From Candidatus Nomurabacteria bacterium (GTDB lineage: Bacteria; Patescibacteriota; Minisyncoccia; Phycocordibacterales; UBA9973): a stretch of 64,000 bases of DNA. The stretch is from NCBI GenBank assembly GCA_026396065.1, contig JAPLXO010000011.1:74748-138747 (forward strand), written 5' to 3'. Positions 52,524-59,063 of this stretch are shown here, in pieces (position 1 is the stretch's first letter; the number at the start of each line of letters is the position of its first letter). The notes under the pieces are model-generated. The model ran no database searches. It saw only the letters and a list, made by a program, of their open reading frames with translations, and was not told the origin of the DNA. A program made the translations under genes and the position numbers.

Positions 52524-53489
52524 TTAGTTAGAATTAATAAATAGCTCTAACTGTTCAAGGTCTCCTAATTTGTAATCTAATTTTGCTAATACACTAAAAG
52601 CGTAATCTCCTAAAGCCTCGTTAACCAAATGAGCTAATTTATTTAAATTACCAGTAAAATATGCTTTTTCAAATTCATATTCTACTTCCTTTTCTGTTTT
52701 TTGTAGTCTTTGTGAAATTTTTTCAACCAACTTAACATAAAATTTTATTTGCTTAAAATATGAAGTTTGTGATAAAAAAACTTCTCCTTTACGAAATTTT
52801 TCTATATCCATGTTAAAAACATTCTCAGGACGTACACCATTTTCCCTTGTTATAGTATTAATCATACTTAACTCAGCTTTTGTAAGAGAAAGTTTTGTTT
52901 TTTCCCAAAGAATTTTATTTGCAATTTTTTCTGTAACAGACTCATTTAAATTACTAAAAAGTAACTGTTTGCTTTCAGTCTCTAATAATGAAAGACCTCC
53001 TCTGTATACACCTTTTATTTCTTTACTAAATAAACCCAAATATTTCTCCTTCCCAATAAATAATTTGTTATGTGACTTAAAATGATTCATTTCATGAACC
53101 AAAGAACCAAAATCATCTATCTCACTATCAGTTTTTTGAAGAAAAATTGATTGTTCAAAAGTATTAAAATATGCTTGTGAATTACTTTTAGATCCTGTTT
53201 TATTTACACCTAAATTTTTTGAATCAAGAAAGTGAATATTTTTTTCTGGAATATCAAATATATCTTCACGGAAGTTTTTTCGATAATTACTAGTTAATTC
53301 GTTTGCTTCAGCAATGTCTTTAAGTAACTTTTCATCTTTTTTAATCTCAAATTGAAGTAAATTCAATGACATTTCAGAACTTAAATAGCCTTCATTGAAA
53401 GAATTTTTTACATTTTCAAATATTTTACCTCTTCTGTTTTCACTAATTTTACCAACAACACTATCTAAGCCAAATTTTTTATTTTCCAT
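52524..53489 (-). CDS. hypothetical protein with HExxH motif (possible zinc metallopeptidase-like)
   Basis: DDFGSLVHEMNHFKSH contains HExxHxxxH; start placed at the internal Met MENKK to avoid overlapping the upstream Cys-rich gene; the rest is uncharacterised. Confidence 0.4.
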   Translation of the reverse strand: MENKKFGLDSVVGKISENRRGKIFENVKNSFNEGYLSSEMSLNLLQFEIKKDEKLLKDIAEANELTSNYRKNFREDIFDIPEKNIHFLDSKNLGVNKTGSKSNSQAYFNTFEQSIFLQKTDSEIDDFGSLVHEMNHFKSHNKLFIGKEKYLGLFSKEIKGVYRGGLSLLETESKQLLFSNLNESVTEKIANKILWEKTKLSLTKAELSMINTITRENGVRPENVFNMDIEKFRKGEVFLSQTSYFKQIKFYVKLVEKISQRLQKTEKEVEYEFEKAYFTGNLNKLAHLVNEALGDYAFSVLAKLDYKLGDLEQLELFINSN

Positions 53490-53499
53490 AATATATATA

Positions 53500-55254
53500 T
53501 TAATAAATCTCCTGCTGATAACACTTTTCACAGTAAATTACATCTGGCTTATCTGGAGGATATGTAGTTTCAAATTGATTCGGGCATTTTCCCTCATGAG
53601 TATGACCAGAAAGATTACACATACATTCTCGCTGAAAAAATTTAAAAGGGTTTTCCCATACACGACGCTGATAATATCTACAATTTGGACAATACCTCGG
53701 TAACGGCAAGTTCATTTGTCGATAAAAAGCTAATTCATCTACTGTTATTTTATACGCCGAGGTGCATTGTGTGGCTGTATCGCCATTATTTGGACAACCA
53801 ACAACCTCATTACAAATATCATCATTTACTTCATTGATACTTTCCGGCAACTTATCAGATGATATGGTCGAAGCATATGCTTTAGCTTCCATATCTTTCC
53901 ATCGATAACCCAAAGAAAGCACTTCGTCTTTTGAAAGATGATTTTCTTCAAAAGCCACACTTTCATTGTAAGCAAAAGGAGAAATCTCTGTCGGGAAACA
54001 CTCTCCAAAAGGATATCTTCTTCCAGTTGAGTCTACATATATCATTTCGTTTAGATGATTTTTGATTTTTTCAATCATTTCAAAATATTCTTCTTTCGTA
54101 TATTGCTTGTTTAAAATACAATATTGTTTCTTACTCAAAGAAACGCAACCGAAACAATCCGAACAACCCCGACAACTATCACAATAAAATAAATCTTTAC
54201 TTGTACCACCACAACTAAGAGAAAAAACTAATCGACTACCACCTCGACCTGCTACTGTTGATTCATAAGATTCTTGAAGTCTTCCTGTAAAGAGTAAATC
54301 ATAAGAATCTTTAGTAGTCGCTATAGCTGAATGTGAATATCTAACATTTTCACATTCGGCCAAACTGTAACAATGATAAACATTTTTTGAATTTTCTATA
54401 AAGTCCCCTACTGCATTTACAGAATTTTTGATGTGCGCGTGTTTATGAATAGCTTTTTGTGCAATATCTTTGAATAAAGTTTTTGCATTTAATTGCCCAG
54501 AATATGTATCGAGTTTTAATTCATCAACTGCAATCTTGTACGCTTCACGTGAAAGTTGCTGATTTTTAAAAACAAAACTTTTATTTCGTAAATTTGAAGA
54601 TAGACAACAATTTACACAGTTCGAACAATCATATAAAAATTGTGATTCTATGCATTGGCTACTTTCCACTAAAAAAGACGAATTGTAATTTTTATTAGAT
54701 TGGACTAGCTCATATCCGCGATCATTATCTTCAATAGTAAAACAATCTACACAATTTTTATTATTTTTAAAATGGCATCTAGAATATTTTATATTTTCAG
54801 AAGCAGAAGTAAAAAAAGATAAATATACATTTTTACTAGTGTAACAATAATTTGAATATTCACAGCCCTCGCCATTTCTTTCATTTTGATCGAGAGCACG
54901 ATGTGGGGTGAGATACTTTAATTCTTTGAATTGCTCAAAAAAAGTTTTCGAAAAATCATACTCTCTGCCATAATCTCGGGCGTCTAATGCATCACTCAAA
55001 AAACACTTCACGCACCACACAGGTATTGTCGTATCAGTGCTATACATTGAGATTGTCGATTCATTGCAATTTTCACAATTTCTTTTGTAAAGTGACCGTT
55101 CGTTGATAAACGTCAATTTGCGAATAAATCGACAAAATGGACACCAAGTCGGTGCTGGTACACCAATTTTTTGATAAAACAAAAAATCTTCAGGAAATAT
55201 TGGAAACTCATTATTACAATTCTGACATATTTTATTTTCTTTTTGATAATCCAT
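53500..55254 (-). CDS. cysteine-rich protein, paralogue 1 of 3 (unknown family)
   Basis: 584 aa; N-terminal CQNCNNEF...FYQKIGVPAPTWCPFCR... and C-terminal ...FYRQMNLPLPRYCPNCR...YCEKCYQQEIY zinc-ribbon-like modules; central Cys-rich ~22-aa repeats; invariant YCILNKQYTKEEYF. Confidence 0.6.
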   Translation of the reverse strand: MDYQKENKICQNCNNEFPIFPEDFLFYQKIGVPAPTWCPFCRFIRKLTFINERSLYKRNCENCNESTISMYSTDTTIPVWCVKCFLSDALDARDYGREYDFSKTFFEQFKELKYLTPHRALDQNERNGEGCEYSNYCYTSKNVYLSFFTSASENIKYSRCHFKNNKNCVDCFTIEDNDRGYELVQSNKNYNSSFLVESSQCIESQFLYDCSNCVNCCLSSNLRNKSFVFKNQQLSREAYKIAVDELKLDTYSGQLNAKTLFKDIAQKAIHKHAHIKNSVNAVGDFIENSKNVYHCYSLAECENVRYSHSAIATTKDSYDLLFTGRLQESYESTVAGRGGSRLVFSLSCGGTSKDLFYCDSCRGCSDCFGCVSLSKKQYCILNKQYTKEEYFEMIEKIKNHLNEMIYVDSTGRRYPFGECFPTEISPFAYNESVAFEENHLSKDEVLSLGYRWKDMEAKAYASTISSDKLPESINEVNDDICNEVVGCPNNGDTATQCTSAYKITVDELAFYRQMNLPLPRYCPNCRYYQRRVWENPFKFFQRECMCNLSGHTHEGKCPNQFETTYPPDKPDVIYCEKCYQQEIY

Positions 55255-57361: not shown

Positions 57362-57386
57362 TTTTGGCAGTTTTTTGTTTCCATGA

Positions 57387-59063
57387 CTAATAAATCTCCT
57401 GCTGGTAACACTCTTCGCAATACACTATCTCCGGGCGCTCGGGTGCATAATTTGTAGTAATTTCTTTGTTACAGTGTGCACAATTCCGTTGCCAGAATTT
57501 ATACGGTCCACGACGGACGATACGATCTTTATGTCTGCAGTAAAAACACTTACGTGGAATCGGTAAAGTCATTTTTTTATAAAAAAGAAGTTCTTGTTCA
57601 ATAATTTTATAATTACGTTCACAATCAACACATTTCAATATTTCTTTTGTAATATCGTCTGCAATATCTTTAATATGATCTGGAATATTTTCGGGTAAAA
57701 GTGTTTCTTTTCCTTTAGTCATTTGAACATCGTCTTCCCATCTGAACCCTTGTGCAATAGCTTCTTCTTTTGAAAGTGGCATGTTGTCTTGGGCTATGGT
57801 TTCGTTGTAGGCGAAAGGAGAAAGCTCTGGTGGCATCATGAGTCCATAGACACCTTTTTCTGTTAATTCATTAATAATATGTTCACGAAGTTTTTCGTAT
57901 TCTTCTTTTGTATATTGTTTGTTTAAAATACAATATTCTGCATTTTTCATGGAATCACAGCCGATGAGTTTTTTGTTGTTGGGACGACAAGAAAAAGAAT
58001 GAAGCACATCTGAAGAATTGTCGATAGCATAACTACCTATTACTCTCGACGAATTTCCTGTTGAAACAACTTCGAGCAATAGTTCTGACTTTACCCCATA
58101 ACCCAAAACACCGACAGAGTCCTTTGGCGCCTTACAAGCAAAACAATGCATTGCATCTTCTCCACCGACACGAATTTCAAAAGAATGTTTTACGTTTTTT
58201 GTATTACTTAAATAATCTCCACTGGAATTAACCGTACCAATATTATGACTTTCTCTTTTGGGAAATTGAAGTCTAAAATTATTAAATTTTTGTTTTTCTT
58301 CTTGTTGTCGTTTATACGAACCACGAAAATCATCCATAAATTTTCCAAATTCATCTCTTGAAACTTTTTCATTATAAATATGAAGTGACTTATTGCGAAG
58401 GCCAACGCAACCAAAACAATCAGTACATCCTGAAAGATCTTCACAGAAATAACAATTTACACAACTTCTGCAATTAGTGGACCACACGACAGTATTACAC
58501 TCATGCGTATTTAAAATTTCATAACATTGTTCATCTTTAACACAAAAATACGCATCACTCACATCATTCGTCATATCAACACCGCGAGAATAAAAAGTAT
58601 TTTCTGCTGGACCACTATTAAATAAAAAATAACAATCTTTAAGTGCAGCACTAGCATTTGTATAATCACTCCGAACATTTGACCCATACCCAGCAGCATC
58701 AAATAAGGTTGCCTTTGGCACACTGATCAATAATTCATTTAATTGTTCAAAGAAAGAACGACTACTATCATATGCTTTAGCAAAACTTCTTGGATCCCAA
58801 TTATCACTCTTATAACAATCTAAACAATACACTTTGTATGATGACTTTGGATTATACATTGTGACAATACTTTTTTTACACAAGTCACATGCTCTGCCAG
58901 TATATAATGACATTTCATTTCTCCATACAGCCTGCTGCTTGAAACGACAATCAGGGCATACTTTCGGCGCTGGCACTTTCAATTTTTCATAAAACGAAAA
59001 ACCGTCTGGCTCAATGTTGAAGTTGTTTTTGCATTTCTGACAGTTTCGGGTTTCACTATTCAT
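57387..59063 (-). CDS. cysteine-rich protein, paralogue 3 of 3 (unknown family)
   Basis: 558 aa; MNSETRNCQKCKNNF...CPDCR...YCEECYQQEIY; retains the EYCILNKQYTKEEYE core. Confidence 0.6.
   Translation of the reverse strand: MNSETRNCQKCKNNFNIEPDGFSFYEKLKVPAPKVCPDCRFKQQAVWRNEMSLYTGRACDLCKKSIVTMYNPKSSYKVYCLDCYKSDNWDPRSFAKAYDSSRSFFEQLNELLISVPKATLFDAAGYGSNVRSDYTNASAALKDCYFLFNSGPAENTFYSRGVDMTNDVSDAYFCVKDEQCYEILNTHECNTVVWSTNCRSCVNCYFCEDLSGCTDCFGCVGLRNKSLHIYNEKVSRDEFGKFMDDFRGSYKRQQEEKQKFNNFRLQFPKRESHNIGTVNSSGDYLSNTKNVKHSFEIRVGGEDAMHCFACKAPKDSVGVLGYGVKSELLLEVVSTGNSSRVIGSYAIDNSSDVLHSFSCRPNNKKLIGCDSMKNAEYCILNKQYTKEEYEKLREHIINELTEKGVYGLMMPPELSPFAYNETIAQDNMPLSKEEAIAQGFRWEDDVQMTKGKETLLPENIPDHIKDIADDITKEILKCVDCERNYKIIEQELLFYKKMTLPIPRKCFYCRHKDRIVRRGPYKFWQRNCAHCNKEITTNYAPERPEIVYCEECYQQEIY

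Follow-up and report, generated by a model that had tools for sequence, protein, structure and literature searches.

The stretch of DNA considered here, a 64-kb window (33.6% GC) from a metagenome-assembled genome of Candidatus Nomurabacteria (Patescibacteria, also called the candidate phyla radiation or CPR), carries three consecutive minus-strand genes, named c1, c2 and c3 below, which encode related cysteine-rich proteins of 584, 578 and 558 amino acids (aa). The three open reading frames (ORFs) are intact, run in the same direction and specify products 35-44% identical to one another; the hidden Markov model (HMM) of the family detects no further member in the window. Two of them are present in NCBI as hypothetical proteins, c1 as NTZ44_04210 and c3 as NTZ44_04225, with 100% identity in both cases. 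An initial annotation of the region, made from the sequence, had recognised the three paralogues, had found no family in which to place them, and had regarded them as diversifying genes of an accessory or conflict locus lodged in a housekeeping block. The first two points stand. The third gives way to another picture: the proteins belong to a large family of Patescibacteria, and the family is linked in the genome to orphan ATPases resembling the coupling proteins of type IV secretion systems (T4SS), a link that is new, statistically strong and clade-specific. The three genes and the predicted domains of c1 are as follows.

57387-59063, minus strand: copy 3 (c3), 558 aa; four terminal Cys4 sites intact; family HMM score 799 bits
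55299-57035, minus strand: copy 2 (c2), 578 aa; the cysteine run that ends the second beta-helix is lost (CVLS)
53500-55254, minus strand: copy 1 (c1), 584 aa; AlphaFold2 model, internal duplication, 12-residue period
54970-55254, minus strand: c1 N-terminal finger pair, aa 1-95
54505-54969, minus strand: c1 first beta-helix and helix, aa 96-250
54055-54504, minus strand: c1 second beta-helix and helix, aa 251-400
53815-54054, minus strand: c1 acidic linker domain, aa 401-480
53503-53814, minus strand: c1 C-terminal finger pair, aa 481-584

Searches started from c1 and from c3 each returned more than 7,000 homologues, and those that carry a name are all entered as "hypothetical protein" from Nomurabacteria, Paceibacterota, Parcubacteria or Minisyncoccia. 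An exhaustive profile search gathered 5,202 cluster representatives at 50% identity, 2,140 of them with E <= 1e-30. The best 150 of these 5,202 clusters are 444-612 aa long and match the profile nearly all from end to end; a typical member has about 560-590 aa, and the architecture is uniform. When one genome per species was scanned, at least 573 loci were found, the best 80 of which lie exclusively in Patescibacteria, including Brenner-, Lipton-, Giovannoni- and Moraniibacteria. A locus filed under Burkholderiales (L074; survey loci are given by number) was considered as a member from outside the CPR and rejected: it is a mis-binned CPR contig of 31% GC, with genes 70-90% identical to those of CPR loci.

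Profile searches of Pfam, NCBIfam, PADLOC and PHROGs gave no family match for the three paralogues, with nothing below E = 0.006 in PADLOC or PHROGs, and the best sequence-profile match in the PDB was to a LIM protein (E = 0.43). No viral, phage or plasmid homologue appeared in IMG/VR, in BFVD or by tblastn against phage and plasmid records. Structural matches are weak and go only to generic narrow beta-solenoids. The predicted architecture matched no solved or viral structure among those searched. A literature search found nothing on the family, nor on PF13451, PF23477 or DUF8128, three domain families that recur below. The family thus has no name, domain model, solved relative or literature. 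We rate it as categorically new because it shows no defining feature of a characterised family, a generic type of finger excepted. Judged from these sequence comparisons, c1, c2 and c3 are very probably old genes, each conserved in its own right, and belong to a very large family that has no name and is confined to Patescibacteria.

Predicted architecture of the proteins

Alignment of the three paralogues confirms the invariant block first noticed in them, YCILNKQYTKEEY, as well as their common termini. The N- and C-terminal modules are indeed homologous to each other (blastp E about 1e-17), but they are collinear duplicates and not inverted copies as had been thought: both have the cysteine layout CxxC-x24-CxxC-x18-CxxC-x17-CxxC. 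In an alignment of 394 members, the outermost Cys4 sites of the termini are retained in 95-97% of the sequences. The CxxC-x17-CxxC element falls at C60/C63-C81/C84 in both c1 and c2, and at C59/C62-C80/C83 and C528/C531-C549/C552 in c3. The second N-terminal finger (positions 60, 63, 81 and 84 in c1) behaves in an all-or-none fashion across the alignment, 263 members keeping all four cysteines and 128 having lost at least three. The C-terminal end is strikingly constant in length, 207 of 224 members terminating exactly six residues past the last CxxC, as ...CxxCYQxEVx.

The initial description of the ends as zinc-ribbon-like is supported by weak matches to treble-clef families. For the second fingers the relevant models are PF23477 (Pfam; curated cut-off 27 bits) and TIGR04272 (NCBIfam; 36 bits). 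In the window these remain below cut-off, PF23477 scoring 23.6 bits with c3, 13.8 bits with c2 and giving no match with c1, and TIGR04272 scoring 18 bits with c3; among 53 family members, 23 match PF23477 at E <= 0.01. PF13451 matches the first fingers weakly, in 16 of the 53 members at E <= 0.01 (best 6.4e-4) and in no window copy.

The middle region consists of two duplicated halves, residues 105-247 aligning with residues 257-397 (hhalign 99.6%, E = 9e-25), and each half is closed by a helix with the motif NxQ[LY][ST]KEEY. Both halves have a 12-residue period with a strong 3-residue sub-period, which replaces the repeat of about 22 residues initially described. One coil would thus span 12 residues, with a small or Cys core residue at every third position. 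The identity autocorrelation at lag 12 reaches 1.8 and 1.4 times the expectation in the two halves and is flat in the linker, taken as control; the commonest Cys-Cys spacing is 3, followed by 9, 6 and 12. The three copies contain 38, 33 and 32 cysteines (5.7-6.5% of residues), somewhat fewer than the roughly 40 of the first count, and the family median is 37.

AlphaFold2 gave models of the same architecture for c1 (predicted local distance difference test, pLDDT, 85.3; predicted template modelling score 0.84) and c3 (85.6 and 0.86). From the N-terminus, the first half of the chain is modelled as two beta-hairpin/helix fingers, a helix, a run of short strands spaced by about 12 residues and two helices, and the second half as another strand run, a long helix, a small linker domain, two fingers and a C-terminal helix. 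The pLDDT is about 90 for the finger modules, the helices and the linker, and varies from 55 to 92, block by block, in the two beta-helix halves. The predicted structure is one in which two pairs of treble-clef fingers cap a duplicated, narrow beta-helix.

The initial annotation had offered a beta-helix or a metal-cluster fold for the middle region. The models, the repeat period and the structural matches all point to the former. Family-wide, the only conserved cysteines are the 16 terminal ones plus C216 and C370; the other middle positions (210, 213, 219, 361, 364 and 367 in the 394-member alignment) are frequently occupied by Leu, Val, Ile or Ser, as at position 367, where Cys is found in 178 members, Leu in 144 and Ile in 42. 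Because these residues replace Cys so freely, the middle cysteines behave as replaceable inward-facing core residues rather than obligatory ligands. An Fe-S or other conserved metal cluster within the beta-helix was considered and rejected, since there is no invariant set of ligands.

The residues invariant in the alignment are the finger cysteines, prolines and glycines, aromatic residues, an asparagine equivalent in the two halves (N231 and N382) and an acid-Arg pair at the equivalent place in each finger module; they include neither a histidine nor a catalytic signature. The proteins have no hydrophobic or transmembrane segment and are mildly acidic (median pI 6.4). From these features and the models we infer that the family consists of soluble, cytoplasmic, zinc-stabilised proteins with a non-enzymatic binding or scaffold role.

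Paralogue arrays and orphan VirD4-like ATPases

Arrays were surveyed at 82 loci, over 10 kb on either side, which provided 156 copies and 86 adjacent pairs. Two or more copies are present at 52 of the 82 loci, always on one strand; the number per locus ranges from 1 to 10, with 9 contiguous copies at L024 and 10 copies at L038, and the genes keep no fixed order. Neighbouring copies share 29-54% identity (median 39%), and not one of the 86 pairs is a recent duplicate. For 97% of the 156 copies, identity is higher to some copy of another genome (median 58%) than to any copy co-resident with them (median 41%). Each copy of the window has orthologues at 55-79% identity in many genomes (55-74% for c3). 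Members of one such orthologue group share 53-62% identity in the beta-helix core and 59-75% in the termini, the corresponding values between paralogues being 26-45% and 42-53%. Since the core is conserved within orthologue groups and recent duplicates are absent, the paralogues are old, and each appears to be under purifying selection, with beta-helix surfaces that differ from one paralogue to another. The earlier description of diversifying paralogues with a variable core is not borne out by these values. As for a calibration of rate against housekeeping neighbours of the same genome, too few loci carry both.

The genes that flank the arrays were collected by unbiased clustering of all ORFs located no more than 4 kb away. 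The leading neighbour, and the only recurrent one, is an ATPase of the VirD4/TraD/TrwB type, found at 22 of the 82 loci. Of the 29 ATPase ORFs, 20 are separated from a family copy by no more than 200 nt, and 28 run in the same direction as the copy. They exceed the Pfam thresholds for TrwB_AAD_bind, T4SS-DNA_transf, TraG-D_C and DUF87, match the NCBIfam models for TraD, VirD4-like and CedD proteins partially, and are soluble. Three forms occur: form A, of about 485 aa; form Az, of some 650-750 aa, which carries a PF23477 finger (E = 1.7e-14) and a low-complexity tail; and a fusion to a DUF8128-like N-terminal part (L079). With F standing for a family gene, the recurrent strings are A-F-F-F, dnaK-Az-F... 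and DUF8128..A..F, and at L033 the order A-F7-Az brackets an array by both forms. The finger of the ATPase is related to those of the family: in hhalign comparisons it aligns with the second finger of the N-terminal module (N-ZnB) at 97% (E = 9e-11) and with that of the C-terminal module (C-ZnB) at 95.5% (E = 1.5e-8), and it has no profile homology to the family's first fingers.

The association also holds when it is approached from the other side. Among 80 metagenome loci sampled by their ATPase, a family gene is nearby at 13 of the 20 that represent the closest ATPase clade, at 8 of the 13 of a second clade and at 1 of the 47 with more distant ATPases resembling type IV coupling proteins (T4CP). 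The comparison of the two clades with the rest (21/33 against 1/47) gives a Fisher p of 6e-10.

Two observations concern the longer ATPases. The dnaK-dnaJ operon of several Paceibacteria is split by Az together with one or more family genes and sometimes by the short ATPase as well (L028, L034, L048, L063, L071); the fully annotated example is L012, where positions 7735-13290 read dnaK-Az-F-A-dnaJ. Past the PF23477 finger, the tails of the long ATPases end in a conserved ...EVPEDVLRKILE-COOH (L012 7735-9981, L063 2130-4391, L048 15735-17693).

Elsewhere, family genes are found within a variety of host operons. In each annotated context examined they are co-directional with the adjacent host genes, several of them only a few nucleotides away. 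Orthologues of c1 follow uvrC, ruvX or a dnaK-ATPase pair, or are inside the purine operon. The uvrABC operon is another housekeeping landing site: two long contigs, L166 and L167 (10001-11749), have single c1-type orthologues, 66-69% identical, directly after uvrB-uvrA-uvrC and before a SpoU methylase gene. In purine operons the insertion point varies, being located after purN (L001 7995-9752), before purQ (L005 350-2098), or both after purL and after purN (L050 9995-11743 and 14948-16708). A role in purine biosynthesis was rejected because the insertion point differs among genomes and other c1 orthologues are in unrelated operons.

Neighbouring genes within the window

In the direction of transcription, the minus strand of the window reads mreB, holB, frr, rseP, c3, a 13-codon relic ORF, a GIY-YIG ORF, c2, c1, an HExxH ORF, map, typA, a sigma70-r4/HARE-HTH gene, a DUF8128-like membrane protein gene and yceG. 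The housekeeping character of the flanks (mreB, holB, frr and rseP on one side, map and typA on the other) is as first described. The array block looks co-transcribed with these neighbours and seems to lack a promoter of its own, because the spacing between its genes is 8-58 nt and the block shows no excess of promoter-like or terminator-like sites. The features other than the three paralogues are the following.

57346-57384, minus strand: relic ORF METKNCQNCPDF*, 13 codons, aligning with the starts of c1, c2 and c3
57094-57336, minus strand: GIY-YIG ORF, 80 aa, Pfam PF01541 E = 1.6e-15
57043-57053, no strand: 11-nt inverted-repeat arm TTGTCCCGATT, the right-hand one in transcription order, overlapping the hairpin at 57049-57070
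57351-57361, no strand: second 11-nt inverted-repeat arm, within the relic ORF
52524-53489, minus strand: HExxH(xxxH) protein gene, 321 aa, with an ORF extendable to 53531
47475-48731, minus strand: DUF8128-like membrane protein gene, 418 aa, with an N-terminal transmembrane helix; KD19 = 1.89

The closest relative, with a protein 79% identical to c1, has the same mreB-holB-frr-rseP ... map-typA block. Its slot is occupied by one intact copy and a pair of genes of 229 and 370 aa, with neither a GIY-YIG nor an HExxH gene, so that copy number does vary between related genomes at this site. The two genes stand between rseP and the c1 orthologue and have no Pfam match; they may be a split or frameshifted family copy, because their summed lengths approximate one family member.

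The GIY-YIG ORF reported between copies 2 and 3 is genuine (PF01541, 57.6 bits against a cut-off of 22.6). Its matches to homing-endonuclease models are weak; TIGR01453 gives 23.6 bits against a cut-off of 56, over profile positions 4-38 only. In its catalytic domain, its intergenic position, its presence in two copies in 64 kb and its inverted repeat, the minigene resembles stand-alone GIY-YIG proteins and homing endonucleases; it differs from the latter in being located between genes and not in an intron or intein, and it is not a complete homing endonuclease because it has just 80 aa and no DNA-binding domain. The inverted repeat that brackets it was correctly noticed, although it is a perfect repeat of 11 nt and not of 10 bp; since about 8% of Markov resamples of this 501-nt AT-rich stretch contain a perfect repeat of at least 11 nt, it is weak evidence taken alone. 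A hairpin follows the ORF (57043-57075, minus strand; CGAUUCUGAU-AA-AUCAGAAUCG; -15.9 kcal/mol, z = -3.2) and overlaps one repeat arm; it is not a canonical terminator because no T-run lies downstream. The relic ORF METKNCQNCPDF* (METKNCQNC...) begins 2 nt past the stop codon of c3 and can be aligned to the starts of c1, c2 and c3. Apparently the GIY-YIG insertion either severed or duplicated the start of a family gene and left this remnant. The minigene itself is probably a small selfish element that landed at a family gene's 5' end and is unrelated to the function of the family.

A second GIY-YIG ORF is present on the plus strand (33050-33355, or from about 33099; Pfam E = 7.6e-16) and adjoins a tRNA-Glu(CTC) gene at 33337-33409. 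The 22 nt with which the tRNA begins recur upstream of the ORF as two fragments, GGCCCTATCGTC ... TAACGGTTAG, and after each comes a GC-rich hairpin some 35 nt long (window positions 32993-33409). It looks as if this element landed within the 5' part of the tRNA gene or beside it, and as if the 5' end of the tRNA was duplicated in the process.

The HExxH protein does contain the motif attributed to it (HEMNHFKSH, that is HExxHxxxH) and has 321 aa; its gene comes after the array in the direction of transcription, whereas the first description had put it upstream. Scans of Pfam, NCBIfam, PADLOC and PHROGs place the protein in no family, the best match being DUF6782 at a sub-threshold E of 0.11, and a word search of 5.8 billion proteins returned only the protein itself. 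It is possibly a zincin-like metallopeptidase. A homologue 29% identical, which keeps HEMLH, follows a two-copy array at L016 in a different chromosomal slot, and the gene may have travelled with an array once, as a rare, lineage-specific passenger and not a family-wide partner. The HExxH protein was rejected as a conserved partner, being an orphan adjacent to the family in 2 of 85 loci. Because GIY-YIG genes are near arrays in just 4 of 84 loci and HExxH genes in just those 2 of 85, we regard both as incidental.

The DUF8128-like gene is 3.8 kb downstream of the array, alone between the sigma70-r4/HARE-HTH gene (HTH, helix-turn-helix) and yceG. Its product is 30% identical to the cl13 representative over 93% of the latter, and the syntenic gene of a relative matches PF26449. 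In other Patescibacteria, genes of this DUF8128-like family stand ahead of the array-flanking VirD4-like ATPase gene or are fused to it. A link between the gene and the array in the window may be supposed from these occurrences in other genomes.

Candidate functions and known systems

A survey of 2,918 Patescibacteria genomes counted 5,713 homologues of VirD4-type T4CP, about 2 per genome, of which 148 are near virB4 (PMC12102498, 2025), and its authors considered that these homologues were possibly exapted for other functions (PMC12102498). The explanation that we prefer as a whole, and hold tentatively, joins the identity of the family described above to a binding role linked to such ATPases. 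On that explanation, family proteins would act as non-enzymatic binding or scaffold proteins; the paralogue-specific surfaces of the beta-helices would supply a distinct specificity for each copy; and the conserved finger modules would dock to the orphan VirD4/TraD-like ATPases, as clients, adaptors or regulators of a translocase. The proposal proper, that these are non-enzymatic modules which dock to the ATPases and owe their specificity to the beta-helices, is put forward with caution, as a possibility suggested by gene linkage and by the relatedness of the fingers. A bolder version would make the family the missing partner set of the orphan ATPases, recruited through the CxxC-x17-CxxC finger, either as cargo or effectors exported to host cells or as adaptors that confer specificity on export. 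This we consider quite unlikely; were it true, it would define a new class of T4CP clients by a zinc-finger recognition module.

Several findings weigh against the docking proposal. No VirD4-like ATPase is present in the 64-kb window, and about 73% of the loci sampled by the family have none within 10 kb. Orthologues of c1 are mostly in unrelated operons (pur, uvrABC, the rseP-map slot), family copies far outnumber ATPases, and a strict pairing of subfamily with ATPase type was sought and not found. The counts of association overstate the number of independent events, because the loci are phylogenetically non-independent. Known T4SS signals do not resemble zinc-stabilised folded domains with an acidic C-terminus (YQQEVY); toxin domains, enzyme domains and immunity genes are all absent, and strong conservation is atypical of effectors. 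Finally, zinc binding, solubility and fold are predictions, the pLDDT of the beta-helix being 55-75 in places.

One competing explanation dispenses with the ATPase and supposes that the finger modules join rigid beta-helical rods head to tail in an intracellular hetero-oligomer or filament made of several paralogues, in the manner of a bactofilin or curlin polymer. The pseudo-symmetric, rod-like architecture with homologous ends would suit such a polymer, as would the absence of a catalytic motif among the invariant residues and the fact that old paralogues have remained adjacent and are probably co-transcribed. Yet the copy number ranges from 1 to 10 per locus with no conserved order, single copies are dispersed in unrelated operons, the fold matches are weak and generic, and a period of 12 is unlike the repeats of bactofilin and curlin. 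We judge a filament unlikely.

Zinc-ribbon and treble-clef fingers often bind nucleic acids. The four fingers could clamp DNA or RNA by sequence or by structure, with the beta-helix as a spacer and a separate target for each paralogue, the proteins serving for example as regulators or RNA-processing factors. Besides the finger type itself, invariant arginines after the CPxC knuckles (R42, R526, R530) would fit this idea, and the neighbours often act on nucleic acids (ruvX, tRNA_bind, uvrABC, an ATPase of the FtsK/HerA superfamily). On the other hand, the median pI of 6.4 is mildly acidic and the finger modules are near neutral, no HTH or other known nucleic-acid-binding domain is present, and the conserved arginines have conserved acidic partners (D23, E507), a pairing that points to structural salt bridges. 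Nucleic-acid binding seems to us improbable, to the same degree as the filament.

A role in metal or redox metabolism, whether storage or buffering of zinc or iron, an Fe-S scaffold or a thiol buffer, would exploit the cysteine content of about 6% and the CxxCxxCxxC runs. The 32-38 cysteines per protein (family median 37) lend it some colour, as does a weak match of the Fe-S protein LdpA to the family (E = 1e-3); the runs are found in most members, and the cluster at the end of the first beta-helix (Sol1-end) keeps at least three cysteines in 345 of the 394 members. However, the middle cysteines are freely replaced, the corresponding cluster of the second beta-helix (Sol2-end) keeps at least three in just 45% of the 394 and is lost in c2 and c3, no canonical ferredoxin motif is present, and the large, strongly conserved non-Cys framework is unlike that of metallothioneins. 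Such a role is very unlikely. The conflict locus of the initial annotation, in which diversifying paralogues would work with the nuclease minigene and the metalloprotease, had in its favour the tandem multi-copy arrays, the change in copy number that the closest relative shows at this slot, the presence of GIY-YIG and HExxH genes inside or beside the array and the HExxH homologue that follows an array in a second genome, but it is largely refuted and now scarcely credible, given orthologues under purifying selection with neither recent duplication nor hypervariability, the lack of paralogue matches in PADLOC and PHROGs and of relatives in IMG/VR, BFVD and the phage and plasmid collections, the rarity of GIY-YIG genes near arrays, the orphan status of the HExxH gene and the absence of an effector domain.

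A large part of bacterial diversity belongs to the Patescibacteria, which live on other cells, have genomes of about 1 Mb and possess many genes with no assigned function. The present family is one of their large expansions: its arrays reach 9-10 genes of about 1.7 kb each and then occupy 15-17 kb, a notable share of such a genome. For annotation, loci of this kind prove to be a regular, conserved feature of Patescibacteria genomes and not strain-specific conflict islands. The clade-specific linkage to the ATPases gives a testable lead on the question raised in 2025 (PMC12102498) of what VirD4-like ATPases do away from a T4SS.

With regard to known folds, the predicted body of the proteins recalls the antifreeze proteins of insects and plants (1m8n, 3ult), curlin CsgA (8c50), gamma-carbonic anhydrases, left-handed acyltransferases and bactofilin (2n3d), all built as a beta-helix of stacked short coils with small or Cys residues turned inward. 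The Tenebrio antifreeze protein has a 12-residue coil period, as the family does; the period is 18 in hexapeptide proteins and 19-23 in curlin. The HMMs of hexapeptide enzymes, bactofilin and curlin give no match here, and the characteristic repeat periods of these proteins are not those of the family. In contrast to these beta-solenoid proteins, with which it has no sequence similarity, the family is predicted to be cytoplasmic, and its beta-helix occurs twice in one chain, between zinc fingers. The fingers themselves are closest to two existing models: the second ones resemble PF23477 (zf_Tbcl_2)/TIGR04272 in the exact CxxC-x17-CxxC spacing and in profile homology, and the first ones, CxxC-x24-CxxCR with an FYxK..P.P motif, resemble PF13451 (zf_Tbcl) through weak matches. 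Those models describe "probable treble clef" fingers of about 37-50 aa with no assigned function, whereas here the fingers are parts of a 560-590-aa architecture.

The closest analogy at the level of a system is with the X-Tfe effectors of Xanthomonas, in which a shared folded C-terminal domain (XVIPCD) is the signal recognised by VirD4 (PMC8740702); in other systems, adaptors or C-terminal extensions of VirD4 can mediate recognition (PMC8740702). The C-terminal module of the family shows no homology to XVIPCD as far as tested (no Pfam match). Unlike X-Tfe, the family has neither a toxin or enzyme domain nor immunity genes, and no conserved small partner gene was found near the arrays. Its C-terminus, a zinc finger ending in the acidic YQQEVY, also departs from the flexible, Arg-carrying, acid-free tails of T4SS signals, and the Patescibacteria ATPases, unlike those of X-Tfe systems, are soluble orphans distant from virB4. 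What the two have in common is a set of many members whose bodies vary while the folded C-terminal module is conserved (47-53% identical between paralogues of the family), together with, at a sizeable fraction of the family's loci though not in the window, a genomic linkage to VirD4-type ATPases.

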